From a virus (lineage: Duplodnaviria; Heunggongvirae; Uroviricota; Caudoviricetes), in the IMG/VR virus record IMGVR_UViG_3300042544_001887: 64,000 bases of DNA. One strand, 5' to 3'. The notes under the pieces were generated by a model. That model saw only the letters and a list, made by a program, of their open reading frames with translations. It had not been told where the DNA came from and did no database searches. Of this stretch, positions 15,664 through 42,269 are shown piece by piece (within the stretch, counting starts at the first letter, position 1; each line of letters starts with the position of its first letter). Both the position numbers and the translations under genes were made by a program.

Positions 15664-15705
15664 GCTAAAGCATATACTATGATTGCATAGCATTAATGCT
15701 ATTTT

Positions 15706-16475: not shown

Positions 16476-19400
16476 ATGAGATTAAGAAACCTTTTTGAAG
16501 TACAAGTGCAACCAGGTGAACGCAGAGGATTTTCGCTGCGGTTGAAGCGTCTTGAAGATTTGCAAGTAAAAATTGCAGAAATACAAAATACTATAAGCGA
16601 ACTTGGTAATGTTAGCGTTCCAGAAAACTTAAAAAAACAAATGGAAGATCTTATCGATGCTGCTAAAATAGAAAAAGAAAAAATCTATGCAGAAGTATCT
16701 GACGCAGAAGTAAAAAATCCAAGAATTCAAGGAATACCTGGATCTGTCATGAAGTTACTTAGAGGCATAGAAAAAAATGCTTCAACTATAATGAACGCAT
16801 ACAGAAAAACTGGAAAATATCTCTATAGAGGAATCAAATCTTCCGAAGACGCACTTTATGGAAAACCTTTTGACATCAGAAAAGCCAAGGATAGTAATGT
16901 AGATTTAAGTAATGCATTAAATCAATCCTTAGCAGACCAAGGATTTAATGCTAGAAGAGACAACACTACTTTTACTTCTGGTTCTTATAATCAGGCTAGT
17001 AATTACGGTACTGTGTATATAATATTTCCTAGAGATGGGTTCTCATTCCATTACAGTAAAAAGATAAGAGACCTTGTTTTAGATACCGGCAAGATTGATA
17101 TGTTACTGGATCCCGAAATAACAGGTTATATCGAAAGTGCTATACGTTCTAACTGGAGCAATCTCAAAAACTATTTTTCTTATAAATTTAGTGGAGATAA
17201 ATTCTTTACAGGTTATGAATATCAAAAAGATTTAGATGGGTTACAACGTGCAGTAGCAGACGGTGTGCTTCCACAAGAATTTGCAAAATATAAGACTTTT
17301 TATGATCTAGTTGATCCTGCAAAAGTTATAGCTAATTTTCAATACAATCAAACTGATCTCGACAGTGCTATAACTTCCGAACATGAAGTCATGATTACAG
17401 GACCGTATTATGCTGTTAAAACAGAGTCCTTTCAAGATTATATTGACAAATATATTAAAATGACAGCAAATGGTGAATTTGATGTCACTCCAGATAACAA
17501 AAAAGAAAAAACTACTTTAAATCAAAAAATACAATCTATAGTAGGCGGTTCCGCGCCTGAGTTTGCAATAGGAGATTGGGTGCAGCATAAGTACGAAGGA
17601 TTTAAAGGTGAAGTTGTTGACTATTACCATACCAATGACTTTGTTCAAATTAAAGATTATGCCGGAAAACTAAAATTAGTCAATAAGAAAAATATTGATA
17701 AAATTAAAACTCCTGAGATGCCCGACTACCAGCCCGGCGATAAAGTTTATCTAAGAACAAAAGACACAGAATGGGAATATTATAATAATAAAAAATACAA
17801 GGTAGTAGACTCTGATAAGTTTACCGTAACAGTTCAAAAAGGCAGTTACGACACCACAATTACATTACCTAAATTGTTAACCGAACCTGCTCCTAAATTT
17901 GATACCAAAGATCCAAGTGTAGGAGACACAGTTCATGTTACCAAGGGCGATTTTGAAAACATGTACGGAACTATTACATATGTTTCTAGTTACAGTAAAG
18001 ATATTGATGTTGACTTCGGAGACAGCGATTCGCACACTGTTCAAAAAGGATCTTACGAAGTTATTGATCCTGCAACAAAACCTGCAGATGCAAACTCTAT
18101 TGCATCAAAGTTTAAAGAAGGTGATTACGTTAGAATCTCTGACGACGGGTTTGATTACAGTGGTCTTGTAGCGGTAATTAATAAACCTGGTTTATCAAAA
18201 TCAAGAGTATATCCGTTCGGCGAAAAAAGTTATGCTTTAAGTATAAAAAATTCTAGATTAAAAGCTATTGATGAAGATGAATTTAAAAAACAATCGTTTA
18301 GCATAACAGATCAAGTAGTTGTATCTGGCGGCAAGCATGATGGAAAGAGTGGAAAACTTAATTATGTAAGCTTTGATGGAACTATGGAAATAGTTGTCAG
18401 TAGTGGTAACACCATAGAAGTACCCGGAAAATATGTTTTTAATCAAAACGTAAATGGTTCTCCTGAAAATAACGAGAATAAAGAAACAATTAAAAAAGGT
18501 GATTTTGTAAAAATCTCAGACGACTCGGACTTGTTCCCAGGTTCTGTAGCAAAAGTAGTTGTAAAGAATTCCGGCGAAAAATCTACAATATTAGTAAACA
18601 ACGACAACAATCTCGATTATATTATTGATACAAAATATCTAACCAAGATTGATGAAAATGAATTTAACAATAAAAAGCTGTCAACCGGCGACGAAGTCAA
18701 TGTCACAGACGGATATTATAAAGGAAAAACTGGAAAAATAAAATCGTTTGGGACTGATGGTCCTGTAAGAGTTGATATAACTTCGCCGTCCACAGGGGAT
18801 ACATTTACAATTAAGGTACTTCCACAATACTTGGAAAAAATAAATCAAAGCAGTGACGACTTAATTGATTTAATGGATCTTGAGTTTGAACCGATGGACG
18901 AGCCTACTGATTTTAAAAATAATGAAACTAAAAAATTTAAAGTCGGCGACAGCGTAAAAGTAATTAATGGTAAACACAAAGGAAAAACTGGAAAAATAAA
19001 TTACCTATATACGTATACAAAAGAAGCGTATGTTGACTTCGACGGTGAATATCACGACATTGAGTTAAAAGACTTAGAGTTAGACAAAGAAGAATCAAAA
19101 ACTGATAGCAATTTTAACAAAGACGAATTAAAAAAGCTAATCAGTCAAGGAAAAGAAAAAGGTTTTATAACCTATAATCAACTAAACGATGTAGTGCCTT
19201 CGGACAAAGTTACTTCTGAAGAAATTGAAGATATAATGGATATGTTAAATGAATTAGGAATCAATTTAGTTGATGCTGAAAAAGACTCGGCTCCATCAGG
19301 TGAAACTCCACAGGAATTACAAGCAAGAATAAACGATCCAGATACAAAAGCGTTCCTTAAACAAGCATTTGCAGATCCTGATGTAAAAGAACTAGTGAGT

Positions 19401-27351: not shown

Positions 27352-27932
27352 TGAGCGATATTTGGGTTATCTCGGATACCCATTTCAATCATGCTAACAT
27401 CTTAACTTTTAAGGACGGCGCCACGGGTAAACTTGTCCGTGGCGATCGTTTTTCGTCTGTAAAAGAAATGGACGAATTTATGATTGAAAGGTGGAATAGC
27501 GTTGTAAAGCCTGGAGACAAAGTTTACCATCTTGGTGATGTTATGTTTGGTGACAGAGAATACTTCCAAAAACTATGGCCTAAACTGCACGGACAAAAGC
27601 GTCTAATTGTTGGTAATCACGACGACATTAAATATTTGAGCAGCGGCGGCTTTTTTGCTAAAGTTCACATGTGGCGTATGTTTCCTGAATTTGGTTTGGT
27701 GTTTAGCCATGTTCCTTTGCACAAAAGTTCACTAAAACGTCACTGGATTAGAAAAGAAGATCATACATTTCTTGGCTACTGGTGGAACCGATATAAAGTA
27801 AGAAATAAGACTATGTTAAATGTGCATGGGCATATTCATCAGAATCCAAGTCCCTGTGGTCCCTATCGTAATATGAGTGTAGAAGCAATTGACTATACTC
27901 CTGTTAATATTGAAGATTTGAGAATCATCTAG
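27351..27932 (+). CDS. calcineurin-like metallophosphoesterase
   Basis: SDTHFNH, GNHDD, GHIH motifs. Confidence 0.65.
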   Translation: MSDIWVISDTHFNHANILTFKDGATGKLVRGDRFSSVKEMDEFMIERWNSVVKPGDKVYHLGDVMFGDREYFQKLWPKLHGQKRLIVGNHDDIKYLSSGGFFAKVHMWRMFPEFGLVFSHVPLHKSSLKRHWIRKEDHTFLGYWWNRYKVRNKTMLNVHGHIHQNPSPCGPYRNMSVEAIDYTPVNIEDLRII

Positions 27933-27954
27933 TATAGAATCAACAAATAAAATC

Positions 27955-27983
27955 TTGACAGATAAAACGTTTTATAGTATAAA
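27955..27983 (+). promoter_or_regulatory. sigma70-like promoter
   Basis: TTGACA-N17-TATAAA. Confidence 0.5.
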
Positions 27984-28036
27984 TACTGTGTAAGCCAGAG
28001 AGGCTCACACTTAACCGCAAAAGGAGTTTTTGCAAA

Positions 28037-29113
28037 ATGAAATATGACGCTCTAGTCTTTATCGGCCGGTTCCAGCCGTTTCACAATGGACACAAGGCAA
28101 TTGTTGATGCCGCCCTTGAACGAGCAAAAGAAGTAATCATTGTAGTTGGTTCTAGCTTTTCTTCAAGGAATATCCGAAATCCTTTTACATTTGATGAACG
28201 CAGACAGATGATTAAAGCTGTGTTCCCGCAGGAGAACGTTAAAGTCGTTCCTGTTAGCGATTACCCGTATGATGATAATAAATGGGTTCATGCTGTGCAA
28301 AACGTAGTTCGCGGTGCGATGCGTTGGAGTGCTGATCCGATTCGAGTTGGCCTTATCGGCCATGAAAAGGACGGATCTAGCTACTACTTGAAAATCTTCA
28401 AGCCGCTAGGTTGGGGTAACGTTAGCGTAAACAACGTCGACGGCGTTAATGCAACAGACATTCGCAATATGTTGTTTGCATCTGCTCCGGATAGTTCAAC
28501 TATTCTTCCAACTATTGTCCATAAAATTTATGAACAATTTGTTCATAAAACTATGAATAAACAGGCAGTAGAAACTATGCACTCACTGATTATAAAAGAT
28601 GGAGTTGTATCACCATGGTTTGAAACGCTGTTCCAAGAATACCAAATGATCAAGAAGTACAAGGAAGCATGGAAAGCTGCTCCATTCCCTCCTACTTTCA
28701 TGACTGTTGATGCTGTTGTTGTTCAAAGCGGACACATCCTTCTTGTGAAACGTGGCGACATGCCTGGTAAAGGTCTTTGGGCTTTGCCCGGTGGGTTCCT
28801 TAATCAAGGTGAAACAATGCTTGACGGTGCCATTCGTGAACTCAAAGAAGAAACTAAAATCAAAGTTGCTGTGCCTGTACTAAAGGGTTCTATTAAAGCG
28901 TTTAACACTTTTGATGCACCTAACCGCAGCCAGCGTGGACGTACTATTACACAGGCGTTCTACATTGACCTTGGCTTTGCAGAAGAACTTCCTAAAGTAA
29001 AAGGCAGCGACGATGCAGAAAAAGCGTTTTGGGTTCCGTTTCACAAAGTGAAACAAGAACTTATGTTCGAAGATCACTTTCATATTATCGACCATTTTGT
29101 TAACATTGGGTAA
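28037..29113 (+). CDS. nadM: bifunctional NMN adenylyltransferase / Nudix hydrolase (NadM-Nudix type)
   Basis: N-terminal GRFQPFHNGH (HxGH) nucleotidyltransferase motif; C-terminal Nudix box GGFLNQGETMLDGAIRELKEETKI. Confidence 0.85.
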   Translation: MKYDALVFIGRFQPFHNGHKAIVDAALERAKEVIIVVGSSFSSRNIRNPFTFDERRQMIKAVFPQENVKVVPVSDYPYDDNKWVHAVQNVVRGAMRWSADPIRVGLIGHEKDGSSYYLKIFKPLGWGNVSVNNVDGVNATDIRNMLFASAPDSSTILPTIVHKIYEQFVHKTMNKQAVETMHSLIIKDGVVSPWFETLFQEYQMIKKYKEAWKAAPFPPTFMTVDAVVVQSGHILLVKRGDMPGKGLWALPGGFLNQGETMLDGAIRELKEETKIKVAVPVLKGSIKAFNTFDAPNRSQRGRTITQAFYIDLGFAEELPKVKGSDDAEKAFWVPFHKVKQELMFEDHFHIIDHFVNIG

Positions 29114-29117
29114 AACT

Positions 29118-29411
29118 ATGAGAATTATTGAACCTGGTAAAGTCGGCAAAACGTGGACCATTAAACACCGTTGCACCGGTTGGGGGAATAGCGACAATGG
29201 TTGCGAAGCACTTCTTGAACTGGAATTCGACGATCTTAGATTTTACGAAGGTCAAGAATTTCCTTGGCGAGTTAGCGAACCTGCTGTATGTTTTAAGTGT
29301 CCGTGCTGCGGAAAAATTACTGACCTTGGGCTAAATGATTGGCCCACAGGTTACCGAAATCTTGAACGGTGGTCTAGTGAATGGTGTGATGCCAGACCTG
29401 ACGCTGCTTAA
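29118..29411 (+). CDS. Zn-ribbon hypothetical protein
   Basis: HRCTGWGNSDNGC ... CFKCPCCG. Confidence 0.4.
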   Translation: MRIIEPGKVGKTWTIKHRCTGWGNSDNGCEALLELEFDDLRFYEGQEFPWRVSEPAVCFKCPCCGKITDLGLNDWPTGYRNLERWSSEWCDARPDAA

Positions 29412-29463
29412 GAAAAAGTCCAACTCAGAGAGAGTTGGCATTAACGTTTAGAGGAGTTCTAAA

Positions 29464-30918
29464 ATGACAAACGTACTAAATCTACTAACTGCTATTATTC
29501 GCACTGACAGCTATAAGCTGAGCCAGTGGCTACAATATCCAAAGGACACTGTCCGTATTAGTTCATACATCGAAAGTCGTGGTGGCGAAGACGAATCGGT
29601 ATTCTTTGGTCTACAAGCGTTCATTAAACAGTATATGATGACACCGATTACTGTAGCAGATATCAATCGTGCTGAACTTATTGTAAAAGCACACGGACTG
29701 CCTTTCAACAGAGAAGGTTGGGAAATCATCGTCAAAGAATACGGCGGCATTCTGCCGTTGGAAATCGAAGCTGTTCCTGAAGGTACCGTTATGGAGACCC
29801 ATAACGTGCAAGTGCAGATTGTTAATACCGATCCACGCTTGTTCTGGTTGACCTCATATGTTGAAACTGCAATGCTTCGCGGCATTTGGTATCCTTCAAC
29901 TGTTGCTACAAAGAGCCGTAAAATGAAGAAACTCATTGCTGCTGCTCTTGAACTAACTAGCGACGTTCCTGTTAACGATCAAATCATGTTCAAGCTACAC
30001 GACTTTGGTGCTCGTGGTGCAAGTTCTTCTGAAACTGCAATGCTTGGTGGTATGGGTCACCTTGTTAACTTTATGGGTACTGACACTGTGGAAGCACTTG
30101 TTGGTGCAATGGAATATTACAACACAGACTCTGTACCTGGGTTTAGTATTCCTGCTAGTGAACACTCAACAATCACTAGCTGGGGTGGTCCTGCTGGAGA
30201 AGTTGTAGCATTTGAAAACATGATCAATACATTTGCCGGTCCCGGTAAACTGTATGCTTGTGTTAGCGACAGCTACGACATTTACTCTGCCGCACGTGAC
30301 TTGTGGGGCGGCGTTCTAAAAGAAAAAGTCATTGCTGCCGGCGGCACCTTGGTGGTACGTCCGGACTCAGGTGATCCTACTACAGTTCCGATTGAAGTTA
30401 TTGGCATCCTTATGGATCGCTTTGGATACACTGTTAACAGCAAAGGCTACCGAGTACTTCCTCCTTACATCCGTCTAATCCAAGGAGATGGTATCAACGA
30501 AAAAACTTTGCCTAAGATCTTGTCAAACATGGTTGAAGCAGGTTACAGCATTGATAACATTGCATTTGGTATGGGCGGTGGCTTGCTACAAGCGTGGAAC
30601 CGTGATACACTCAAGTATGCTATGAAAGCTAGTGCTAGACAGGATACTGAGGGTGTATGGCACGATGTCTTTAAAGATCCGATCTCAGACCGCGGCAAAG
30701 TGTCTAAAAAAGGTCGTCTTGGATTAGTTTATGAGTGCGGGATTGGAAACTGCGGTTATAGAACTCTTCCAAAGTCGGTTGCTGACAAAAAAGGCAACCT
30801 ACTGAGAACTGTATATCGCAACGGTGAACTCTTAATTGAGGACACTTTTGAAAATATTCGCAATCGTGCAAAACTTAAAGTGGAGGAATACACTCATGAT
30901 GTCGTTGAAAGATATTGA
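29464..30918 (+). CDS. nadV: nicotinamide phosphoribosyltransferase (NAMPT/NadV)
   Basis: N-terminal TDSYK motif, 484 aa, NAPRTase-family signatures. Confidence 0.9.
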   Translation: MTNVLNLLTAIIRTDSYKLSQWLQYPKDTVRISSYIESRGGEDESVFFGLQAFIKQYMMTPITVADINRAELIVKAHGLPFNREGWEIIVKEYGGILPLEIEAVPEGTVMETHNVQVQIVNTDPRLFWLTSYVETAMLRGIWYPSTVATKSRKMKKLIAAALELTSDVPVNDQIMFKLHDFGARGASSSETAMLGGMGHLVNFMGTDTVEALVGAMEYYNTDSVPGFSIPASEHSTITSWGGPAGEVVAFENMINTFAGPGKLYACVSDSYDIYSAARDLWGGVLKEKVIAAGGTLVVRPDSGDPTTVPIEVIGILMDRFGYTVNSKGYRVLPPYIRLIQGDGINEKTLPKILSNMVEAGYSIDNIAFGMGGGLLQAWNRDTLKYAMKASARQDTEGVWHDVFKDPISDRGKVSKKGRLGLVYECGIGNCGYRTLPKSVADKKGNLLRTVYRNGELLIEDTFENIRNRAKLKVEEYTHDVVERY

Positions 30919-31045
30919 AATTGTCCAAATGATGGCAATGGCGTGGAAAATGAACGATGAGCGTAACAAACGCTTAGAAGCAGAAAAACGCCTCAATAAC
31001 ACAGACTATCGTGTTAAAATCATCGACGATGCAGTACAAGAATAA
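30896..31045 (+). CDS. small hypothetical protein (49 aa)
   Basis: GGAGGA RBS; immediately followed by terminator. Confidence 0.35.
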   Translation: MMSLKDIEIVQMMAMAWKMNDERNKRLEAEKRLNNTDYRVKIIDDAVQE

Positions 31046-31069
31046 AAAGGGCCTTCGGGCCCTTTTTTA
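31044..31069 (+). terminator. intrinsic terminator
   Basis: aagggcc-ttcg-ggccctt then TTTTTT. Confidence 0.7.
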
Positions 31070-31073
31070 CTGG

Positions 31074-31102
31074 TTGACTCTGCTCTCAAGAGTCGCTATA
31101 TT
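31074..31102 (+). promoter_or_regulatory. sigma70-like promoter
   Basis: TTGACT-N17-TATATT. Confidence 0.55.
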
Positions 31103-31128
31103 CTAATACATAGAGCAAGGAGATACAA

Positions 31129-31278
31129 ATGCTTGATATTCTAGTTTACTACGTACTTCCTAACGTTGCTATGTTTGGCGGACTTTATCTTATTGCCAAA
31201 TACATTGAAAACTCTGCTTGGTATTTTATTGAAAACTACGAAGAGATTCAACAAAAGCTTAAATCTTATCTTAACTAA
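31129..31278 (+). CDS. small membrane protein (49 aa)
   Basis: AAGGAGATACAAATG RBS; hydrophobic core. Confidence 0.45.
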   Translation: MLDILVYYVLPNVAMFGGLYLIAKYIENSAWYFIENYEEIQQKLKSYLN

Positions 31279-31300
31279 ACCGTAACAAAAGGAGAAATAT

Positions 31301-32719
31301 ATGTTCGGTATTTTTGTAGGAGTTCTACTTCTGCTTGGTGCATCTGCACTAATGTTTGTTCCTCTAGATCCAGCACTTAGTAAATTGAAGATGATTGGTT
31401 CTACAGTGATGATTGTTCTAGCTGGTATTTTTAGCCTCGGTGGTGCCGTTGGTTATAACGATGCTGGCTTCTGCCAACACGTTCGTACTATCTTTGGTAA
31501 TGAAACTGCAACCTGTGAGACCGGTTGGTATTTTGCCGGTTGGGGAACCAGCACTGCATGGCCGCACTATATCACTGTAGCACACACACTTGATGCAACT
31601 GGTGAAAATGCAGGCACTGTGTTCCAGGGATCGATTGCAGAACCTTACCGTGTTCGACTTGCAGACAACTGGACCGGTGATGTAACTCAAACTACTCGCT
31701 TTGGTATTCCGCAAGATACTGCACAGTTTCTTGAAATGGCACGAACTTTCCGCACACCTGAGCGACTGATCAATACTACTCTAAAGCCTGCTGTTACTGC
31801 TAGTCTTGACTCAGTGAGTAACATGTTTACTATGGAAGAATACTACAGTGGCGGTAAGCGTGACCAATTCAAGAGCGAGTTTAAGGATGCTATTGAAAAA
31901 GGTCGTGCCCAAGTTCGCCAAATTAGCCTTAACCAAGCAGGTGGCGTAATTCGAAATCGTGTTGCTGCTAGTGATAGTGATGCTGCACAAGACACCAGTG
32001 AAGTCGGTGACACTGAAGTTCGCAAAGTGCTAATGGAAAAAATTACAGATGCCAGTGGCAATGATGTTCGCACACCGCATGACTTTACTGAAATTGGCGT
32101 TACTGTAGCAAGTGCTATTCTTGAAAACATCGATCCCGATGACGAATACGAACGTCAAATCGGCGAACGTAAAAAAGCCGCAAGCCGTCGAGTTGTAGCA
32201 CGTGAACAGCGACTTGAACAGGAAGAACAGCGTCTACTTGCTATCCAACAAGGTGAAACCGACATTGCCAAGCGTCAAGCAGAAGCAAAGGTTAACCAAA
32301 TTGAACAAACTACCAATGCCGAAACAACCAAGAAACTGGCTCTGATTGAAGCAGAACGTGTAAAGGAAGAAGCTGAAATTGCTCGCCAGACTGCCGCAAT
32401 TAACCTTGAACGAGCTCGTATTGATGCTGAGGCTGTAACTGTTGCTGCTGATGCTGAAGCCTACGCAAAAGAAGCAATTCTTACTGCTGACGGTGCTCTT
32501 GCACAGAAGCTAGAAGCGTGGGTTGCTGCACAACGAGTTTGGGCTGATGCTGCAAGTAAGATCAATGTTCCTGCTACTGTGATTGCAGGCGGTGGTGACG
32601 GTGGTACTGCTGGTAATGCTCTTGGCACTGTAGACCAGTTCATGCAGATGCTGATGATCAAGACTGCAAAAGATCTGCAAGTTGATCCAACTATTGCTGC
32701 TACTCCTGTAAAGCAGTAA
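31301..32719 (+). CDS. SPFH/band-7 (HflK/C-stomatin-like) membrane protein
   Basis: N-terminal TM segments, central SPFH-like region, long Ala/Glu-rich coiled coil; AAGGAGAAATATATG RBS. Confidence 0.5.
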   Translation: MFGIFVGVLLLLGASALMFVPLDPALSKLKMIGSTVMIVLAGIFSLGGAVGYNDAGFCQHVRTIFGNETATCETGWYFAGWGTSTAWPHYITVAHTLDATGENAGTVFQGSIAEPYRVRLADNWTGDVTQTTRFGIPQDTAQFLEMARTFRTPERLINTTLKPAVTASLDSVSNMFTMEEYYSGGKRDQFKSEFKDAIEKGRAQVRQISLNQAGGVIRNRVAASDSDAAQDTSEVGDTEVRKVLMEKITDASGNDVRTPHDFTEIGVTVASAILENIDPDDEYERQIGERKKAASRRVVAREQRLEQEEQRLLAIQQGETDIAKRQAEAKVNQIEQTTNAETTKKLALIEAERVKEEAEIARQTAAINLERARIDAEAVTVAADAEAYAKEAILTADGALAQKLEAWVAAQRVWADAASKINVPATVIAGGGDGGTAGNALGTVDQFMQMLMIKTAKDLQVDPTIAATPVKQ

Positions 32720-34250: not shown

Positions 34251-34340
34251 GGAGAGTTGGTTGAGCGGCCGATAACACTCGTCTACTAAACGAGCAGGGG
34301 GTAATGCCCCTCGTGGGTTCGAATCCCACACTCTCCGCCA
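34251..34340 (+). tRNA. tRNA-Ser, type II, apparent anticodon ACT (A34)
   Basis: acceptor ggagagt/actctcc, anticodon stem ctcgt/acgag with loop ctACTaa, long variable arm, T-loop ttcgaat, CCA. Confidence 0.6.
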
Positions 34341-34357
34341 AAAATATAAATACTTAC

Positions 34358-34729
34358 ATGCTAATAAATGAAATTTTTACCGGGTATACATTAAAAGACT
34401 GGACAACTGTTGAATTGCTGGAAAGTTCTGGTAATTGGATGACCACTCAAACGACTGCATATAAAAAAGGATTAAAATTCTATTCAAAAAATGCAGTCGT
34501 TATGAACAGTTTAAGTGAATTGCTTGGGTTTATACAGCAACATACGTCACCACCGCCAACTGATTCTTATCCTCCAAAATTTAATGTACACATGATTCCA
34601 AAACATAAATATTATTCCAGAGAACTTTGGTCACATCTAAAAGGACAAAATATTGGACTATTGTTTAGTGTTGAACCAGGAGTTATAAATTTAAGATGTA
34701 TAGGAACACATGACGGATGCGGTATTTAA
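34358..34729 (+). CDS. hypothetical protein
   Basis: track ORF start lies inside tRNA; first ATG after tRNA used. Confidence 0.4.
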   Translation: MLINEIFTGYTLKDWTTVELLESSGNWMTTQTTAYKKGLKFYSKNAVVMNSLSELLGFIQQHTSPPPTDSYPPKFNVHMIPKHKYYSRELWSHLKGQNIGLLFSVEPGVINLRCIGTHDGCGI

Positions 34730-34737
34730 AAAATATA

Positions 34738-34766
34738 TTGACACACATCTCTAACTATGTTACTAC
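34738..34766 (+). promoter_or_regulatory. possible sigma70 promoter
   Basis: TTGACA-N17-TACTAC. Confidence 0.3.
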
Positions 34767-34797
34767 AGTAATAACAAAACTAGTAGGAGCAAAGACA

Positions 34798-34917
34798 GTG
34801 TACAACGAAAGTGATATGACTAACATTGAAACTGTTCAATCGCTTGAAAAGCATCTCGAAGAAATTGCAGTTGAAAAACCAAAACCGAGACGCGGCAGAC
34901 CGAAAAAAGATAAATAA
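34798..34917 (+). CDS. small AT-hook-like DNA-binding protein
   Basis: GTG start after TAGGAG RBS; C-terminal PRRGRPKK. Confidence 0.3.
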   Translation: MYNESDMTNIETVQSLEKHLEEIAVEKPKPRRGRPKKDK

Positions 34918-35067
34918 AAGATAAATAAAATAAAGAGGAAAAGACTTTCTATGAACTTAACGAGTGCATCATCGCTAGTATGGACAAACGGATTACAAAA
35001 TCCGGGCAATGATCTATGCTCGGAGGGTTATGGAAACGGTTAACAATGAGTTAACAAAAAATTCCAA

Positions 35068-35103
35068 AAACCCTCCAAGCAAGAAGCTTAGGAGGGTTTT
35101 TTA
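35068..35103 (+). terminator. intrinsic terminator
   Basis: ccctcc...ggaggg stem then TTTTTT. Confidence 0.65.
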
Positions 35104-35105
35104 AT

Positions 35106-35240
35106 ATGAACACGAAAGTTTTAAGAGACTATAAGGCACTACTAAAAGACTACAACGAAGGCAAAATTAGTTACAAAGAATTTGTTGATCAAACACTTCC
35201 GCTGTGGAATAAATTAAACAACTTGTTCGAAAAAGATTAA
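35106..35240 (+). CDS. small hypothetical protein (44 aa)
   Basis: ATG 9 nt after the terminator 3' arm (TAGGAGGG) which doubles as RBS. Confidence 0.35.
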   Translation: MNTKVLRDYKALLKDYNEGKISYKEFVDQTLPLWNKLNNLFEKD

Positions 35241-35248
35241 AAAAGCAG

Positions 35249-35277
35249 TTGACATAGAGTAAAACATACACTATATT
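35249..35277 (+). promoter_or_regulatory. strong sigma70 consensus promoter (tRNA operon)
   Basis: TTGACA-N17-TATATT. Confidence 0.6.
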
Positions 35278-35316
35278 AACTAAACAAACAAAAAATAAAA
35301 CGTAACGCAAGTTACA

Positions 35317-35329
35317 CGCTCTTTGACAA
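35317..35329 (+). promoter_or_regulatory. boxA-like antitermination element
   Basis: CGCTCTTTGACAA vs E. coli rrn boxA TGCTCTTTAACAA. Confidence 0.45.
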
Positions 35330-35414
35330 TTTAGATTTGTTGTTTACATCGTAAGATGTAGTAAACAACGCTCACTTAGACGCAAGTCGATAATAGTGGG
35401 GGTAAGTAGAGAAT

Positions 35415-35466
35415 GACTCTACTTACACGTATTAACTGGTAGCTGGTTCGATTCCGGCGTAGAGTC
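35415..35466 (+). ncRNA. truncated tRNA-like hairpin RNA
   Basis: 7-bp acceptor-like stem gactcta/tagagtc plus ctgg-ttcgatt-ccgg T-arm, no D/anticodon arms. Confidence 0.25.
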
Positions 35467-35823
35467 TAGGTGACTATGAAAGGTTTGATTCCTTTGTACT
35501 ACTGGTGTAGCAAATTGGACGACAGTCCGCCAAGTTAGTACGTGTAAGTAGAGTCGAGCAATTGAATTATTCGATGCTGTGAAGTATTTCTAACAGCATT
35601 TGATGATTGTGCCATGTGGTAAAAAGATTGCTTACAGCTAGAAAAAAGCTGACTACAATAATACACGGTAATAGAAAAGACCAAATCTTTTTTAACATCG
35701 TGTATTTATAGAAAAAACTAGTGCAGGAGGATAACTCTGTAAGTCACAAGAACAACGGTGCCGCATGACTCAATTGCGGTTAAATTACCCGAGTAGTGCC
35801 GGGCAGAGCCAAACACACAATGT

Positions 35824-35899
35824 TCCTCGTTAGCTCAGTTGGTAGAGTATTTGACTGTTAATCAAAGTGTCGCTGGTTCGAGCCCAGCACGAGGAGCCA
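35824..35899 (+). tRNA. tRNA-Asn (GTT)
   Basis: acceptor tcctcgt/acgagga, loop ctGTTaa, CCA. Confidence 0.7.
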
Positions 35900-35966
35900 A
35901 AATTGAGAAGGGGATAAACACGGCAGTCTCATTGCGTAGCAACGGTGCCCTTTCTTTTAGAATAAT

Positions 35967-36043
35967 GCATCGGTATAGCTCAGCTGGTAGAGCAGCGGTC
36001 TCCAAAACCGCGTGTCCTGGGTTCGAATCCTAGTGCCGGTGCC
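35967..36043 (+). tRNA. tRNA-Trp (CCA)
   Basis: acceptor gcatcgg/ccggtgc, loop ctCCAaa, T-loop gttcgaatc; 3' CCA not encoded. Confidence 0.6.
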
Positions 36044-36051
36044 AAAAATAC

Positions 36052-36143
36052 GGATTGATGGGTGAGAGGCTTAAACCAGCAGATTGCTAATCTGTCGTAC
36101 CTTGTAAAGGGTACCGAGGGTTCGAATCCCTCTCGATCCGCCA
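36052..36143 (+). tRNA. tRNA-Ser (GCT), type II
   Basis: acceptor ggattga/tcgatcc, loop ttGCTaa, long variable arm, T-loop ttcgaat, CCA. Confidence 0.65.
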
Positions 36144-36154
36144 GAATAAGATAC

Positions 36155-36229
36155 GGGCTGTTGGTATAGTTGGGAACACAGTAGCTTTGCAAGCTTCAAT
36201 CACCGGTTCGAACCCGGTACGGTCCACCA
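36155..36229 (+). tRNA. tRNA-Ala (TGC)
   Basis: acceptor gggctgt/acggtcc with G3-U70 Ala identity pair, loop ttTGCaa, T-loop ttcgaac, CCA. Confidence 0.65.
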
Positions 36230-36236
36230 AAATAAT

Positions 36237-36280
36237 GCGGGATTAACTCAGTGGTAGATAAATACTTTAAATAGGAGATA
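36237..36280 (+). pseudogene. tRNA 5'-half remnant (duplicate of tRNA-Val 5' end)
   Basis: gcgggattaactcagtggtaga mirrors 5' end of tRNA at 36693; 3' half replaced by HNH gene RBS and ORF. Confidence 0.4.
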
Positions 36281-36288
36281 CTCTACCA

Positions 36289-36702
36289 ATGGCTAAAACG
36301 TTCAACTGTTTAAATTGTAGTAAAGAAAGTAAATGGAGTTATAGCAGCACTAACAAGTATTGCAGCGGCGATTGCTTTCAAGAACACAAATGGAAAACTG
36401 TAAAAAAACTTGAAGTAGAAGCAGGGTTAGTCAATGACGGAAGCCCTGCGTTAAAAAAATACCTTGTTGAAACAAAAGGTGAATGCTGTGAAGAGTGCAA
36501 AGTTGGCACTGTTTACAACGGAAAGCCATTAACACTAACTGTTGATCATATTGATGGTAATAGTGATAATAACTTTCCAGGCAACCTTAGACTTTTATGT
36601 CCTAATTGTCACAGTCAAACTGAAACATACAAAGGACGAAACAAAAAGAATAGTGCTCGTTCTCGATATATGAGAAAGTATAGAGATAATTTGCGGAATT
36701 AG
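36289..36702 (+). CDS. HNH homing endonuclease
   Basis: CxxC...CEECK...HIDGNSDNNFPGNLRLLCPNCH HNH motif; AGGAG RBS; embedded in tRNA cluster. Confidence 0.8.
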   Translation: MAKTFNCLNCSKESKWSYSSTNKYCSGDCFQEHKWKTVKKLEVEAGLVNDGSPALKKYLVETKGECCEECKVGTVYNGKPLTLTVDHIDGNSDNNFPGNLRLLCPNCHSQTETYKGRNKKNSARSRYMRKYRDNLRN

Positions 36703-36767
36703 CTCAGTGGTAGAGCAGGGGTTTTACACACCTCAGGCCGGGAGTTCGACCCTCTCATTCCGCACCA
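36693..36767 (+). tRNA. tRNA-Val (TAC)
   Basis: acceptor gcggaat/attccgc, loop ttTACac, T-loop ttcgacc, CCA; 5' end overlaps HNH stop. Confidence 0.7.
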
Positions 36768-36769
36768 AG

Positions 36770-36871
36770 TTTAGACTGGATATAATCACCCCTTGTGAGG
36801 GTGGCCCAAGGACTCAGTAACGAGATACAGCGAAGGGTTGTTGGTCAAGGCTGCAAACAGCCCAGTCTAAA
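36770..36871 (+). ncRNA. structured spacer RNA closed by 10-bp stem (tttagactgg/ccagtctaaa)
   Basis: perfect long-range stem with internal hairpins (cacccttgtgagggtg, ggctgcaaacagcc). Confidence 0.35.
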
Positions 36872-36878
36872 GCAATAC

Positions 36879-36967
36879 GGACACTTGGCAGAGATGGATT
36901 ATTGCACCGGTCTTGAAAACCGACGAACCGCAAGGTTCCCAGGGTTCGAATCCCTGAGTGTCCGCCA
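36879..36967 (+). tRNA. tRNA-Ser (TGA), type II
   Basis: acceptor ggacact/agtgtcc, loop ctTGAaa, long variable arm, T-loop ttcgaat, CCA. Confidence 0.65.
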
Positions 36968-37043
36968 TAAGCACACTAGCATCAGGCTAGTCCAGACCGT
37001 AAGGTTAACGGTGACAAGCGGGGAGAGACCCGCACAAAAATAC

Positions 37044-37120
37044 GGCCTGTTAGTCGAGTGGTTTAAGATGCCTGCCTGTCACGCAGGAGATGATGGGTTC
37101 AATTCCCATACAGGTCGCCA
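37044..37120 (+). tRNA. tRNA-Asp (GTC)
   Basis: acceptor ggcctgt/acaggtc, stem cctgc/gcagg loop ctGTCac, T-loop ttcaatt, CCA. Confidence 0.7.
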
Positions 37121-37135
37121 AATTGAAAGGAAGGC

Positions 37136-37233
37136 TCATAGTTTACGTTTAGCCCGTTACGACGGTTTGGGCGGAAAATGGTTGAGTCACGGCACGGGCG
37201 GGTCGGGGGCTGCGTGACGGCATTGAACTATGA
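37136..37233 (+). ncRNA. structured spacer RNA closed by 8-bp stem (tcatagtt/aactatga)
   Basis: long-range stem plus GC-rich hairpin gtcacg...cgtgac. Confidence 0.3.
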
Positions 37234-37272
37234 AGCAGTTGTCGGTCTGCGTTAACAAACACCGTCAAAATT

Positions 37273-37346
37273 GCGGGTATGGTGTAGCGGTAACATGCGA
37301 GCCTTCCAAGCTCTTGTCACGAGTTCGAATCTCGTTACCCGCTCCA
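37273..37346 (+). tRNA. tRNA-Gly (TCC)
   Basis: acceptor gcgggta/tacccgc, loop ctTCCaa, T-loop ttcgaat, CCA. Confidence 0.7.
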
Positions 37347-37371
37347 ATTTATCCGTATGTGAGAGGACAAT

Positions 37372-37638
37372 ATGAAAACAGAAGATGAAAAGAGAGAATT
37401 TTACGAGCGTTGCTCCTCTATGTTAGGAATAGCTCACGTTTACAACACGCCAGTTCCACGACGCAATAGATGGAACGCAAGACGACTGGGCAACGGACGT
37501 TATCCAGGATTTGGACTAATACAGTGCTACGGAAACGGAGCAAGAGTAGTTAGTCGACAAGGAACACGTATGTTTTATACATACGAAGCAGTTTATGAAT
37601 ATTTGCAGATTGTGCTTGACGCAACTGCAAAAGCGTAG
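37372..37638 (+). CDS. hypothetical protein inside tRNA cluster
   Basis: 88 aa, GAGAGGACAATATG RBS. Confidence 0.45.
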   Translation: MKTEDEKREFYERCSSMLGIAHVYNTPVPRRNRWNARRLGNGRYPGFGLIQCYGNGARVVSRQGTRMFYTYEAVYEYLQIVLDATAKA

Positions 37639-37653
37639 TATAAAAACTATAAC

Positions 37654-37729
37654 GCCCTTATAGCTCAGCTGGTAGAGCATCTGATTTGTAATCAGAGGGT
37701 CGGCGGTTCAAGTCCGTCTGGGGGCACCA
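37654..37729 (+). tRNA. tRNA-Thr (TGT)
   Basis: acceptor gccctta/tgggggc, stem tctga/tcaga loop ttTGTaa, T-loop ttcaagt, CCA. Confidence 0.7.
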
Positions 37730-37736
37730 AAATTAT

Positions 37737-37812
37737 GTCGCGTTAGCAAAAGGTTAATGCGTGTCCTGTGCAAAGGACAAGGACGGTGGTTAAACTCCCC
37801 GACGCGACTCCA
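37737..37812 (+). ncRNA. atypical tRNA-like gene (perfect acceptor+CCA, 8-nt anticodon-position loop, degenerate T-arm)
   Basis: acceptor gtcgcgt/acgcgac, D-stem gca/tgc, stem tgtcc/ggaca with loop tgtgcaaa, no TTC T-loop. Confidence 0.35.
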
Positions 37813-37818
37813 AATAAT

Positions 37819-37900
37819 GCGGATGTGGTGTAATGGTAGCCACGCTGGTCTTAGAAGCCAGTGCGTAAGCGTGAGAGTTCGAGTCTCTCCATCCGCACCA
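37819..37900 (+). tRNA. tRNA-Leu (TAG), type II
   Basis: acceptor gcggatg/catccgc, loop ctTAGaa, long variable arm, T-loop ttcgagt, CCA. Confidence 0.7.
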
Positions 37901-37944
37901 AAATATTTCTTATCTTAAAAAGTTTTAAATTTAGAAAGATTAAC

Positions 37945-38388
37945 ATGCAATTTTATGAAAAAGTAACTTTTTTACCAAGCATTCCAGAAGGTTTAATAAA
38001 ACCTTTAGATATAATCGAATCGATGCCGAATGTTTTTCCAGATCCGGATTACGCTCATACTTATGCCAGCTATAAGGCAAATGACGATTTACAAGCTTGG
38101 GCACAAAGTTATTTTGACTTTCCTGTACTTGCAAGATATCAGGTGATTAAACAACAATTGCCTATTCATGTTGACGTTGGAATTGTAGGAATAAAATATA
38201 ACTACCTTATTAGCAGGGGTGGTGACGATGTAAAAACAAGATGGTGGGATAGTGTAGAAAATCCTTCAAAAATACTTTTTGAAACTACTTCGCCATTACG
38301 TGTGTGGCACAGCTTAAACATCGAAGTGCCACACGATATAACAGAAATTAGTTATCCTAGAATTAGTGTAACTATAAGAAAAAAATAG
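37945..38388 (+). CDS. hypothetical protein
   Basis: first ATG after tRNA-Leu; track ORF start overlaps the tRNA. Confidence 0.4.
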   Translation: MQFYEKVTFLPSIPEGLIKPLDIIESMPNVFPDPDYAHTYASYKANDDLQAWAQSYFDFPVLARYQVIKQQLPIHVDVGIVGIKYNYLISRGGDDVKTRWWDSVENPSKILFETTSPLRVWHSLNIEVPHDITEISYPRISVTIRKK

Positions 38389-38416
38389 TAATAACTTTTT
38401 TAAAGAAAAATACTGT

Positions 38417-38492
38417 TGGGAAGTAGCTCAATTGGTAGAGTAGCGGACTTTGAATCCGTTGGTTGGTGGTTCGAATCCACCCTTCCCAGCCA
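38417..38492 (+). tRNA. tRNA-Gln (TTG)
   Basis: U1-A72 acceptor tgggaag/cttccca, loop ctTTGaa, T-arm ggtgg-ttcgaat-ccacc, CCA. Confidence 0.7.
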
Positions 38493-38498
38493 AGATAT

Positions 38499-38575
38499 CG
38501 GAGTATAGCACAGCCTGGTAGTGCGATGGTTTTGGGTACCATAGGTCGAGGGTTCGAATCCTTCTACTCCGACCA
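38499..38575 (+). tRNA. tRNA-Pro (TGG)
   Basis: C1-G72 acceptor cggagta/tactccg, stem atggt/accat loop ttTGGgt, T-loop ttcgaat, CCA. Confidence 0.7.
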
Positions 38576-38792
38576 CGATTAAACTGTTGATCTAACCTCG
38601 GACTCGAACAAATAGCCATAGGCTTAGGCAGGTAGTACGGCGGATTAGTGTTAGACAACATTCGGACCAAGTAATCCGTGAGGTCCAGCTATTAGTGATG
38701 GCGGGGACGAACAAGCGGCTGATTTGGTATCAGTCGTGAGGCGGTAAGCTGCACCATAGGTGTCGTAGGCCGGGACTTGTTCAATTTATTAT

Positions 38793-38870
38793 CTGGGTAT
38801 AGCTCAGTCTGTGAAGAGTGCTCGCCTTGGAAGCGAGAGGTCGCTGGTTCAAATCCAGTTACCCAGACCA
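38793..38870 (+). tRNA. tRNA with TGG-type anticodon loop (second Pro-like, identity uncertain)
   Basis: acceptor ctgggta/tacccag, stem ctcgc/gcgag loop ctTGGaa, T-loop ttcaaat, CCA. Confidence 0.5.
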
Positions 38871-38877
38871 AAATAAC

Positions 38878-38952
38878 GCGGTGTTGGACAAGATGGATTG
38901 TCAGAGGATTCTAAACCTTAGTAGGCAGGATCGTTACCTGTACGCCGCACCA
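38878..38952 (+). ncRNA. 75-nt tRNA-like gene with candidate CUA (amber-reading) anticodon and swapped A54/U58 T-loop
   Basis: perfect cloverleaf spacing 7/2/4/8/4/1/5/7/5/4/5/7/5/7+A+CCA; acceptor gcggtgt/acgccgc, D-arm gaca/tgtc, T-stem gcagg/cctgt loop atcgtta; anticodon stem weak (3 of 5 bp), loop ttCTAaa. Confidence 0.3.
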
Positions 38953-39065
38953 ATACACACATATGATGCCGTAGCCCGACGCTGGTATGTGTGAAACCTA
39001 AATATCGGGCATGTAATTTAATAAAGGAAAGAAAAATGTCGTAGATTGAATATGCTTGTAAAGAT

Positions 39066-39602
39066 GTGGTGTTCCACTTTAACAAAAAACACTTGGAAGA
39101 TGAAACTATTCCGATGTGGGTGATTAAGTTTCGAGGCGAAACCTATTATGTAAATCATGTCGAATGTAGTGTTCCGTGGAGTACAAAAGAAACGCCTGAT
39201 AACAATCACACTAAAGGCAGTATCAAAGTCAAGGATTGTTTAGTTATTATTGATGATGAGAACTGTGCTAACATTCGTGTGTTAACTCCAGCAGATCGTT
39301 TGCGTCTTACTAAAGAACAAACTGTAAGAGTTATTACCGAGCAAGGAGCAAAACTGCGTACTGCACTACAGAACATGGCACATGGTCCGATTAAGTTAGC
39401 AGGTGGAGGATGTGGCACTACTTGGTATATCACAGATATTCCCAGTAAGAAACATTTAACAATACTACAACTACAGATTCCTTATATTAGGCAATTGATG
39501 CCCAATGAGGATTATTACAAGAAATATGATCAAACATCTTCAGATACTGAATGGTTAGATGATGATGACGACTACGAGTGGGAAGACCTTTATGAAAATT
39601 GA
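39066..39602 (+). CDS. hypothetical protein
   Basis: 178 aa. Confidence 0.45.
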   Translation: MVFHFNKKHLEDETIPMWVIKFRGETYYVNHVECSVPWSTKETPDNNHTKGSIKVKDCLVIIDDENCANIRVLTPADRLRLTKEQTVRVITEQGAKLRTALQNMAHGPIKLAGGGCGTTWYITDIPSKKHLTILQLQIPYIRQLMPNEDYYKKYDQTSSDTEWLDDDDDYEWEDLYEN

Positions 39603-39771
39603 AGTGCCTCACTCGTTACTAAAAGAAGTCTGTGCTACAATTCGTCAATTCAAATTAAGGCACGGGCCATTCTACAAACTGTTAAATAGCTATAGGATAT
39701 ATTTGTATCCAAGTAGTAAATTAAGTTTGTTTTTGATTAAACATTCTAGCACTGTTACAGTGCTAGAATAA
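39592..39771 (+). CDS. small hypothetical protein (59 aa)
   Basis: ATG overlapping upstream stop. Confidence 0.3.
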   Translation: MKIEVPHSLLKEVCATIRQFKLRHGPFYKLLNSYRIYLYPSSKLSLFLIKHSSTVTVLE

Positions 39772-39772
39772 T

Positions 39773-39847
39773 GCGGGCGTAGCTCAGGGGTAGAGCGTCA
39801 CCTTGCCAAGGTGAATGTCGTGGGTTCGAATCCCATCGCCCGCTCCA
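39773..39847 (+). tRNA. tRNA-Gly (GCC)
   Basis: acceptor gcgggcg/cgcccgc, stem tcacc/ggtga loop ttGCCaa, T-loop ttcgaat, CCA; preceded by 10-bp hairpin 39745-39768. Confidence 0.7.
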
Positions 39848-39865
39848 ATTGTTGAAAGATATTGT

Positions 39866-40447
39866 ATGAGTAAAATAGAGCACTTTTATCATCTTCCGCA
39901 CTTCGAAGAAGAATGGTTTACATATTCGGCTTTATATTCTGATATGGTAGCTAAATTTCCATCCGGAAGTAAGTTTGTTGAAGTCGGTTGTTGGAAGGGA
40001 AGATCTGCTGCTTATATGTGTGTAGAAATTGCTAATTCAAAAAAAGACATTGATTTTTATTGTGTTGACTTTTGGCATGTATCAGCAGAGCATGAAATAG
40101 AAGAACCCCATCTAAAAAATTTGTATGAAATTTTTCTTTCTAATATGAAACCAGTTGAAGCTTTTTATAAGCCAATGAAAATACCGTCGTCTGATGCTGC
40201 AAAAAAATTTAAAGACGAAAGTTTAGATTTTGTTTTTATTGATGCTGGACATCAATACGATGAAGTAAAAGATGATATTCTTGCATGGTATCCAAAAATT
40301 AAAAAAGGTGGCATACTAGCAGGACATGATTTTTATCCAACTGAGCCAACTTGGGGAGATGTTTCTAAAGTAGTAAACGAACTTTTTCCAAATAATTATG
40401 AAGTTTTAATAGAACAAAGTTGCTTTCTAGTAAATAAGCCGGTATAG
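39866..40447 (+). CDS. class I SAM-dependent methyltransferase (CmcI/TylF-like)
   Basis: VEVGCWKGRSAAYM motif I-like, FIDAGHQYDEV, GGILAGHDF; stop overlaps next tRNA. Confidence 0.5.
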   Translation: MSKIEHFYHLPHFEEEWFTYSALYSDMVAKFPSGSKFVEVGCWKGRSAAYMCVEIANSKKDIDFYCVDFWHVSAEHEIEEPHLKNLYEIFLSNMKPVEAFYKPMKIPSSDAAKKFKDESLDFVFIDAGHQYDEVKDDILAWYPKIKKGGILAGHDFYPTEPTWGDVSKVVNELFPNNYEVLIEQSCFLVNKPV

Positions 40448-40511
40448 CTGAGTGGTTTAGCAGCTGATTAGTAATCAGCTGACGGGAGTTCGATTCTCTC
40501 TACCGGCACCA
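40438..40511 (+). tRNA. tRNA-Thr-like, apparent anticodon AGT (A34)
   Basis: acceptor gccggta/taccggc, stem gctga/tcagc loop ttAGTaa (part of 10-bp perfect palindrome), T-loop ttcgatt, CCA. Confidence 0.55.
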
Positions 40512-40546
40512 AATCTAAATTTTTTATTAATTAATAGGTATCCAAG

Positions 40547-41302: not shown

Positions 41303-41376
41303 TTTACAAATTTGAAAACGTTAAAAAACGATAATATAAATACTGTAAATTATTAACAAATAGTGAAATATATAAA

Positions 41377-42138: not shown

Positions 42139-42195
42139 TTACAATATAAACATTTTTCTGTAACAGAAAAAAAATAAAAAAGTTGAAAAAAGTGG

Positions 42196-42224
42196 TTGAC
42201 CTTTGAGGCAACATGCACTATATT
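42196..42224 (+). promoter_or_regulatory. strong sigma70 consensus promoter
   Basis: TTGACC-N17-TATATT. Confidence 0.6.
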
Positions 42225-42255
42225 AACTACATAAGCAGCAAATGTGTTGCTTACA

Positions 42256-42268: not shown

Positions 42269-42269
42269 T

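Follow-up and report, generated by a model that had tools for sequence, protein, structure and literature searches.

A 64,000-nucleotide (nt) stretch of DNA from a virus of the class Caudoviricetes (IMG/VR record IMGVR_UViG_3300042544_001887), hereafter the window, carries between positions 28,037 and 30,918 three closely spaced genes which we read as a compact NARP2-type operon for reconstitution of nicotinamide adenine dinucleotide (NAD+). The outer two encode the enzymes NadM-Nudix and NadV, and the one between them encodes a small protein with four invariant cysteines, here called Cys4, which probably serves the Nudix domain as an accessory partner. We give this reading a probability of about 70%. 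A first-pass annotation had described the locus as a two-gene NARP2-type cassette of a nicotinamide phosphoribosyltransferase (NAMPT) and a nicotinamide mononucleotide (NMN) adenylyltransferase (NMNAT) joined to a Nudix domain. Both enzymes proved intact and homologous to those of phage KVP40, but the cassette has three genes and the middle one is conserved. Taken alone, the enzyme pair is a further example of an already known pathway; new here are a third gene that is conserved, the link of its whole family to Nudix proteins of NadM and NrtR type, and a structured leader. The three genes are listed below (aa, amino acids; pI, isoelectric point).

28037..29113, + strand: nadM-nudix (natV-type), 358 aa, NMN adenylyltransferase fused to an ADP-ribose-type Nudix hydrolase (family models, PDB, KVP40 homology, motifs).
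29118..29411, + strand: Cys4 gene, 97-aa acidic (pI 4.9) protein of zinc-binding type, undescribed family (conservation, four invariant cysteines).
29464..30918, + strand: nadV, nicotinamide phosphoribosyltransferase, 484 aa (family models, PDB, KVP40 homology, active-site motifs).

The nadM-nudix product showed two Pfam domains, CTP_transf_like (E 4e-13) and NUDIX (E 2e-20), and matched the NCBIfam equivalog for bifunctional NMNAT/Nudix proteins (NF003786) with 424 bits, above the cutoff of 397. Its closest solved structures were PDB 2qjo (E 8e-82) and 2qjt (E 2e-62), both from characterised bifunctional NMNAT/Nudix enzymes; the alignment with 2qjt ran end to end, and that with 2qjo fell into two domain stretches (residues 2-149 and 196-356). 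The NadM-Nudix proteins of Synechocystis (slr0787) and Francisella tularensis (PDB 2qjo and 2qjt/2r5w) are thus full-length homologues which share the HxGH motif and the Nudix box with the window protein, but they are encoded by cellular genomes and are not known to have a Cys4 partner. Identity to KVP40 NatV (KVP40.0162) was 36% over the full length (E 1e-64). The HxGH motif reads FHNGH (residues 15-19) and the Nudix box is complete, with its catalytic glutamates kept (G253-x5-E259-x7-R267-E268-L-K-E271-E272). The Nudix domain, at about residues 195-358, also scored 49 bits against the model of NrtR, the ADP-ribose-responsive repressor of NAD genes in which a Nudix domain is joined to a winged helix-turn-helix (wHTH) domain. 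Unlike NrtR, NadM-Nudix lacks the winged helix and keeps the catalytic glutamates, and we therefore regard it as an enzyme and not as a regulator.

NadV combines the Pfam domains NAMPT_N (PF18127) and NAPRTase (PF04095) and reached 588 bits against NF006629 (cutoff 405). Among solved structures it matched bacterial NAMPT 7yqo at E 2e-144 and human NAMPT at about E 1e-114 to 1e-117; the solved NAMPTs scored 485 and about 386 bits, and a lower group of PDB entries about 200 bits. The TDSYK motif occupies residues 14-18, so that all three motifs listed in the first-pass annotation (HxGH, Nudix box and TDSYK) stand intact in the expected open reading frames (ORFs). Residues Y17, F181, R184, D207, H234 and D269 align with Y18, F193, R196, D219, H247 and D279 of human NAMPT, and R299, D301, D342, G371-G372 and R380 with R311, D313, D354, G383-G384 and R392, the human numbering being adjusted for the loop-deleted 6tac construct. 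The active-site residues of NAMPT presumably include the autophosphorylated histidine and the nicotinamide-selecting aspartate. KVP40 NadV (KVP40.0264) is 44% identical (E 3e-122).

NARP2 was defined from the Nampt and Nmnat genes of KVP40, uses by that definition nicotinamide, phosphoribosyl pyrophosphate (PRPP) and ATP as substrates and was not found together with NARP1 (Osterman et al., bioRxiv 10.1101/2024.02.11.579819). The window cassette holds the identical two enzyme families in identical domain architecture (NAMPT_N plus NAPRTase; NMNAT plus Nudix), and the chemistry is expected to match that of KVP40 (nicotinamide, PRPP and ATP to NAD+). Other phage pathways also rebuild NAD+ against depletion defences, namely NARP1 (Adps plus Namat), its variant NARP1-AP with the additional macro-domain phosphatase Adpp, and NARP3 (PnuC plus NadR). 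In NARP1 the Adps gene adjoins the Namat gene, whereas the neighbours of the window nadV are the Cys4 gene and nadM-nudix. Among the Pfam matches listed for 62 ORFs of the window, which is part of the genome, none was of Prs or Adps type, and those listed for 53 of these ORFs included neither PnuC nor NadR; NARP1 and NARP3 therefore do not apply within the window. As an enzymatic assignment made from the sequence, NARP2 is well supported for this cassette. NARP1-AP also illustrates that accessory genes can join a core two-gene pathway.

The arrangement of the genes differs from that of KVP40. There natV (94.5 kb) and nadV (138.2 kb) lie 43 kb apart and the ORF after natV is unrelated to Cys4, whereas in the window both genes belong to one tightly packed operon that also has a structured leader and a third, conserved gene. 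A compact order of nadM followed by nadV is common in other large phages. The best cultured-phage matches were the roseophage-type nadM-x-nadV cassettes of DSS3_MAL1, MD18, DSS3P8 and RpAliso (57-60% identity for NadV, 50% for NadM), which share the gene order of the window, with an ORF of about 100 aa in the middle; that ORF is unrelated to Cys4 and has a single cysteine. KVP40 also carries nadR and pnuC about 1 kb apart (positions 13615-16215 of locus L039, corresponding to 113.6-116.2 kb of KVP40), a NARP3-like pair beside NARP2. KVP40.0211, annotated as 'nadR', was considered as a candidate for NatV and ruled out, being a true NadR.

On this basis the two enzymes very probably synthesise NAD+. 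NadV would convert nicotinamide and PRPP into NMN, from which the N-terminal domain of NadM would make NAD+ with ATP. Defensive NADases also release ADP-ribose, which the C-terminal Nudix domain would split to yield AMP and ribose-5-phosphate; the latter would presumably be returned to PRPP by Prs of the host. The statement in the first-pass annotation that NAD+ is rebuilt from nicotinamide and PRPP/ADP-ribose thus stands for nicotinamide and PRPP (plus ATP), with ADP-ribose entering only indirectly. The net effect would be restoration of NAD+ after depletion by Thoeris, DSR, SIR2-HerA, SEFIR or aRES-type defences. As an accessory protein, Cys4 would most likely modulate the Nudix domain in its activity, specificity or assembly.

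Counter-defence is probably the role for which the cassette was selected, as judged from homology to KVP40. In the presence of the KVP40 pair NAD+ rises and defence by type I Thoeris and by DSR2 is lost (10.1101/2024.02.11.579819), and a later preprint describes aRES defence as likewise cancelled by the pair (10.64898/2026.01.28.702374). NARP2 could instead act as a general metabolic booster, raising NAD+ in every infection for the NAD-consuming and redox processes of the phage itself. It increases NAD+ even in cells that hold no defence system (10.1101/2024.02.11.579819). Further metabolic genes of the window (thymidine kinase, PTPS, fatty-acid desaturase) fit such a role as well. The pathway was reportedly first described by Lee and colleagues in 2017 as nucleotide-precursor metabolism, with early expression in KVP40 infection. 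However, one classic NAD+ demand is absent, the DNA ligase of this phage being ATP-dependent (Pfam DNA_ligase_A_M; phrog_114), and the abolition of three kinds of defence by the tested pathway also speaks against a purely metabolic purpose. We regard the booster as the less probable account, while noting that the two roles are compatible and not mutually exclusive.

The first-pass annotation had mentioned the middle gene as a zinc-ribbon ORF lying between the enzymes. The ORF is real and has four invariant cysteines, but it is not incidental: it belongs to a large, Nudix-linked family and is under purifying selection. Its likely start is the ATG at 29118 rather than the TTG at 29097. No match was found in Pfam (E up to 0.01), NCBIfam, PHROGs or PADLOC, while 49 database proteins shared 50-82% identity with it, and a profile search of 1.84 billion representatives recovered 537 clusters at E up to 0.001. 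The ratio of nonsynonymous to synonymous substitution rates was 0.07-0.14 against six relatives, similar to that of the flanking enzymes, a rough estimate with synonymous divergence near saturation. These homologues, the 537 clusters and the low substitution ratio together identify Cys4 as a real gene. A tblastn search of cultured phages with two divergent family members gave no match.

In a set of 66 divergent members (mean identity 30%) only C19, C29, C61 and C64 were invariant, as is characteristic of a structural Zn(Cys)4 site; judged by this conservation, the protein most likely binds one zinc ion through its four cysteines. W13, W22, W75, W89 and the residues TDL are conserved to a lesser degree. 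The spacing is C19-x9-C29 and C61-x2-C64, with a first knuckle atypical for a classical zinc ribbon. The AlphaFold2 model was all-beta (predicted local distance difference test, pLDDT, 86), and structure comparison returned no match to a known fold. The best PDB sequence match, a marginal one, was the zinc ribbon of TFIIE-alpha (E 0.009). Unexplained TFIIE-like zinc ribbons have been noted in jumbo phages (siphoviruses) (Iyer et al. 2021, PMC7824862), and these might be members of the Cys4 family.

To survey the surroundings of the family we considered close and distant members separately. All close homologues (more than 50% identity) with flanking sequence, on contigs from ENA, Logan and IMG/VR, lay between NadM-Nudix and NadV, with outer neighbours of the trio that varied (ClpB-like, PIF1 helicase or SPFH). 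Distant members were sampled without regard to neighbours, solely through a degenerate DNA pattern that corresponds to the first knuckle (C-T-G-x-G-N-G-G-x-G-C). In metagenomes 105 of 120 loci were confirmed as Cys4 and formed 90 clusters, 74 of them with enough flank. A Nudix ORF on the same strand followed within 1 kb, or was fused, in 23 of these 74 (typical gap about 90 nt), and four further clusters had NadM-Nudix directly upstream of Cys4. Overall, 31 of the 90 clusters showed an adjacent (either side) or fused Nudix, and NadV was also present in 6 clusters. The zones 1 kb downstream of Cys4 held 28 Nudix ORFs in 75 kb, compared with 9 in the other 426 kb, an enrichment of about 18-fold. 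Among species-representative genomes, 53 of 58 loci were confirmed, mostly in metagenome-assembled genomes (MAGs) of candidate phyla radiation (CPR) bacteria and small-genome Bacilli, and an adjacent or fused Nudix was found at 32 of the 53, often overlapping or within about 20 nt. In IMG/VR, where 13 of 15 distant loci were confirmed, most lacked an adjacent Nudix; one (L018) had a Nudix downstream and another (L030) reproduced the window layout. Fusions of Cys4 with Nudix occurred in five distinct places (P0168, L111, L125/L147, L218 and, marginally, P0132), and a fusion with an NTPase was seen as well (P0143, L045). We found no description of a Cys4-Nudix association in the searchable literature.

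Ten of the partner Nudix proteins were typed. Four were NrtR-like, with NUDIX and NrtR_WHD domains and a length of roughly 250 aa (one of 430 aa); the other six comprised four standalone Nudix proteins of about 140 aa and two fusions. For five of these six the best NCBIfam match was the Nudix half of NadM-Nudix or NrtR, and for the sixth (L128) a generic Nudix model came first and NadM-Nudix second. By their family matches, then, the partners are mostly of NadM/NrtR (ADP-ribose) type. NrtR-like proteins were encoded directly downstream of Cys4 in MAGs of small-genome Bacilli and on several metagenome contigs. A trio of Cys4, an NrtR-like Nudix-wHTH protein and a second Nudix (about 175-190 aa) recurred in Bacilli/Coprovivens MAGs (L175, L188, L190, L193, L195, L198, L205, L209) with gaps of 0-10 nt, which makes these loci look like cellular operons. 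Two phage contigs held larger NAD islands. One (L027, the same as L057; positions 1-5019) encodes NadV, a NadR-like NMNAT-kinase, Cys4, NAD kinase, an intervening ORF and NADAR, and the NAD kinase suggests that NADP+ is also rebuilt there; the other (L019) encodes NadM-Nudix, NadV, an intervening ORF, Metallophos, Macro and Cys4. SPFH genes adjoin Cys4 genes in four otherwise dissimilar contigs (L009, L032, L034/L110, L091), and L032 carries two tandem Cys4 paralogues.

The fusions, the tight adjacency and the positional enrichment across unrelated lineages make partnership the best reading of these data, and from such genomic evidence we consider it likely that Cys4 is a functional partner of ADP-ribose-type Nudix domains. 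We infer physical contact between the two; Cys4 could activate the Nudix domain, restrain its hydrolysis of NAD+, change its specificity or assist its assembly. Several observations weigh against a partnership. Conserved adjacency within the close clade could come partly from shared descent. Phages ACP17 and Cp1R7A-A1 have no gene between nadM and nadV, and in DSS3_MAL1 and Synechococcus B23 unrelated ORFs occupy this slot. About 60% of the metagenome clusters have no adjacent Nudix, nor do most distant Cys4 genes on jumbo-phage contigs, and around the Lacusarx homologue no NAD or Nudix gene lies within about 3 ORFs. The order of the two genes varies, with Nudix first in the window and Cys4 first elsewhere. 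The single-sequence AlphaFold model of the natural fusion P0168 reached a pLDDT of 37, and no domain interface could be read from it. Finally, no Cys4 gene was found beside natV of KVP40 or in the 100 kb of that genome scanned with the family profile. As the KVP40 pair works and no Cys4 was found there, Cys4 is not required for NARP2 chemistry and would be an accessory rather than a core catalyst. The middle ORFs of other nadM-x-nadV cassettes were compared with Cys4 and ruled out as members of the family (E 1 for DSS3_MAL1; hhalign probability 0.07% for KVP40.0163).

Part of this pattern would also be expected if Cys4 were an unrelated small gene, such as a zinc-ribbon transcription factor or a host-takeover protein, co-inherited in a permissive slot. 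The variable content of the slot across phages, the lack of NAD or Nudix neighbours within about 3 ORFs of the Lacusarx and most jumbo-phage homologues, the marginal TFIIE-alpha match and the TFIIE-like ribbons of jumbo phages are all in keeping with such a hitch-hiker. It does not readily account for Cys4-Nudix fusions at several separate places, for an enrichment just after Cys4 in a sample picked blind to neighbours or for the overlapping or closely spaced pairs at 32 of 53 bacterial MAG loci, and the acidity of the window protein (pI 4.9) is unusual for a DNA binder. We consider simple co-inheritance unlikely.

It is also conceivable that Cys4 and Nudix form a pair with a separate job, the destruction of ADP-ribose-derived immune signals or of NAD-capped RNA, and that NadV and NMNAT are merely operon-mates. 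In CPR bacteria and Bacilli and on many metagenome contigs Cys4-Nudix pairs occur with neither NadV nor NMNAT, which agrees with this. So does the activity of the Nudix domain of KVP40 NatV, said by Lee and colleagues in 2017 to act on ADP-ribose, NAD+ and NADH. An analogy is offered by E. coli NudC, a Nudix enzyme that hydrolyses NAD(H) and NAD caps and carries its own Cys4 zinc motif beside the Nudix domain: the Cys4 module of NudC (Pfam zf-NADH-PPase) lies immediately N-terminal to Nudix, as in the Cys4-Nudix fusions. However, no sequence or structural similarity between NudC and the Cys4 protein was detectable, the latter did not match zf-NADH-PPase, and its first knuckle is C-x9-C and not CxxC. 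A job wholly apart from NAD+ synthesis strikes us as distinctly improbable, and a Nudix partner within the NARP2 operon remains our preferred view of Cys4.

The three genes appear to be expressed as a unit, with the following flanking and internal elements.

27955..27983, + strand: sigma-70-like promoter, TTGACA-N17-TATAAA, -10 region GTATAAATA (pattern search).
27988..28010, + strand: leader hairpin 1, 9-bp stem with an invariant C-AGAGA-G loop closure (covariation).
28017..28033, + strand: leader hairpin 2, GCAAAAGGAGTTTTTGC, with the Shine-Dalgarno GGAG in its loop, 3 nt 5' of the nadM ATG.
29420..29438, + strand: small hairpin CCAACTC-AGA-GAGTTGG in the spacer 5' of nadV (sequence reading and scans).
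30896..31045, + strand: possible 49-aa ORF overlapping the 3' end of nadV, with GGAGGAA ahead of it (sequence reading; coding status uncertain).
31044..31067, either strand (symmetrical): intrinsic-terminator-like hairpin AAAAAGGGCC-TTCG-GGCCCTTTTT (scan and sequence reading).

The gap from the nadM stop to the Cys4 ATG is 4 nt, and the spacer before nadV is 52 nt. The promoter pattern (TTGACA-N16-18-TATAAA) occurs at one site in 64 kb, against a chance expectation of 0.18 and with at least one site in 16 of 100 shuffles, and relatives share the -10 block ahead of nadM; transcription of the operon would start from here. In hairpin 1, changes on both sides were seen in 8 of 9 stem pairs among 16 related leaders, with a covariation score of 0.391 versus 0.128 in shuffles (reached in none of 500) and at most 0.096 in slid-pairing controls. 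Hairpin 2 is invariant in 15 of 16 relatives, shows one compensatory change from A-U to U-A and occurs once in the window. An Rfam search over 27800-31300 found no NAD+ riboswitch, no other family and no match for the leader hairpin. The leader was found in L003, L005, L007, L010-L014, L030, L099, L103, L104 and L019, and in relatives it precedes a few other genes as well, which indicates a lineage-wide expression module and not a NAD-specific one. Hairpins with an AGAGAG loop were considered as a genome-wide motif and ruled out (2 in the window versus 0.8 in shuffles); that scan skipped the nadM leader hairpin, whose loop is AGAGA. For the 49-aa ORF neither a homologue in related loci nor a PADLOC match was found. 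The terminator-like hairpin is GC-rich and flanked by A and T runs; the scan calls it on the minus strand, and the plus strand shows the same stem followed by a T-run. A promoter-like site follows at 31074-31102. The promoter, the co-varying leader hairpin, nadM-nudix, Cys4, nadV, possibly the 49-aa ORF and the terminator may accordingly be read as one operon. Directly upstream lies a gene for a calcineurin-like phosphoesterase (phrog_547, 27351-27932), a homologue of which is found within a few kb of the cassette, on either side, in many relatives (L003, L005, L007, L011-L015, L030, L056), and downstream lies a gene for an SPFH/Band-7 membrane protein (31301-32719).

Two other genes of the window had been counted in the first-pass annotation as additional loci of NAD/ADP-ribose chemistry.

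5303-5746: macro domain protein (Pfam Macro, 39 bits).
19551-20462: ADP-ribosylglycohydrolase (Pfam, 246 bits).

Their family assignments were confirmed by Pfam, but they lie 8-23 kb away and may have no part in the salvage pathway. The macro protein most resembles the macro domain of the DarG antitoxin (PADLOC DarG, 79 bits; NCBIfam NF048014, 70 bits), and the ADP-ribosylglycohydrolase resembles the ADP-ribosylarginine hydrolase Tri1 (NCBIfam, 355 bits, below the cutoff of 490). DarG and Tri1 are enzymes which take ADP-ribose off modified DNA or protein. The likeness to DarG suggests that the macro protein removes ADP-ribosylation from DNA (anti-DarT) rather than taking part in NAD salvage, and in contrast to the Adpp macro protein of NARP1-AP it is DarG-like and encoded 23 kb from the cassette. 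The ADP-ribosylglycohydrolase gene directly follows that of a 1019-aa protein (region 16476-20462) with a weak match to a phage sigma-factor family; a Pfam hit to Sigma70 region 1.1 probably concerns the same protein.

The source of the window is a large, tRNA-rich and previously unsequenced phage. When the cassette was compared by megablast with 50,697 phage records, nothing matched, and the phage has no close relative among them; its rIIA is only 31-38% identical to those of Straboviridae. The plus strand bears 81 of 98 simple ORF calls. Other genes include rIIA/rIIB, an RNA ligase, the ATP-dependent DNA ligase and tail-fibre genes, and 33 tRNA genes in two clusters (1874-10020 and 34251-43885) cover nearly all amino acids. 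Two tRNAs with odd anticodon loops (37737-37812 and 42850-42923) were not named by ARAGORN. Domains for RNA repair and cyclic-phosphate processing are densely present (T4 Rnl1-type ligase at 21523-22680, PNKP phosphatase, HAD_SAK_2, cREC_REC). In addition to the thymidine kinase, fatty-acid desaturase and PTPS, the window encodes ClpP and UvdE as well as proteins with L7/L12 C-terminal and KOW/SPT5-like domains. A GC-rich patch at 6001-8000 (0.505 versus about 0.40 elsewhere in the window) coincides with two minus-strand ORFs (6402-7001 and 7031-7672) inside an otherwise plus-strand region and may be a recent insertion.

Depletion of NAD+ is among the commonest bacterial strategies against phages. 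Three phage pathways are known to reverse it, and one of them, NARP2, has been treated as consisting of two genes. NARP2 is reportedly costly or toxic, and a built-in modulator could explain why some phages tolerate it. A stronger version of the proposal, which we regard as quite unlikely, would make Cys4 an obligate zinc-binding subunit that switches the action of ADP-ribose-type Nudix domains, and NARP2 a three-component system that both rebuilds NAD+ and removes defence signals. If this were true, Cys4 might block wasteful hydrolysis of NAD+ while permitting cleavage of ADP-ribose, or extend cleavage to ADP-ribose-derived immune signals, and it would be the missing partner of NrtR-type NAD regulators in bacteria. 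The co-varying leader hairpin, for its part, provides a handle on control of early-gene expression in related phages. More broadly, phages, CPR bacteria and small-genome Bacilli all have members of the Cys4 family (at least 537 clusters) that recur beside Nudix domains of NadM or NrtR type or are fused to them. This recurrent linkage suggests that the handling of ADP-ribose and NAD+ involves a component so far overlooked, and recognition of Cys4 would improve the annotation of anti-defence loci.

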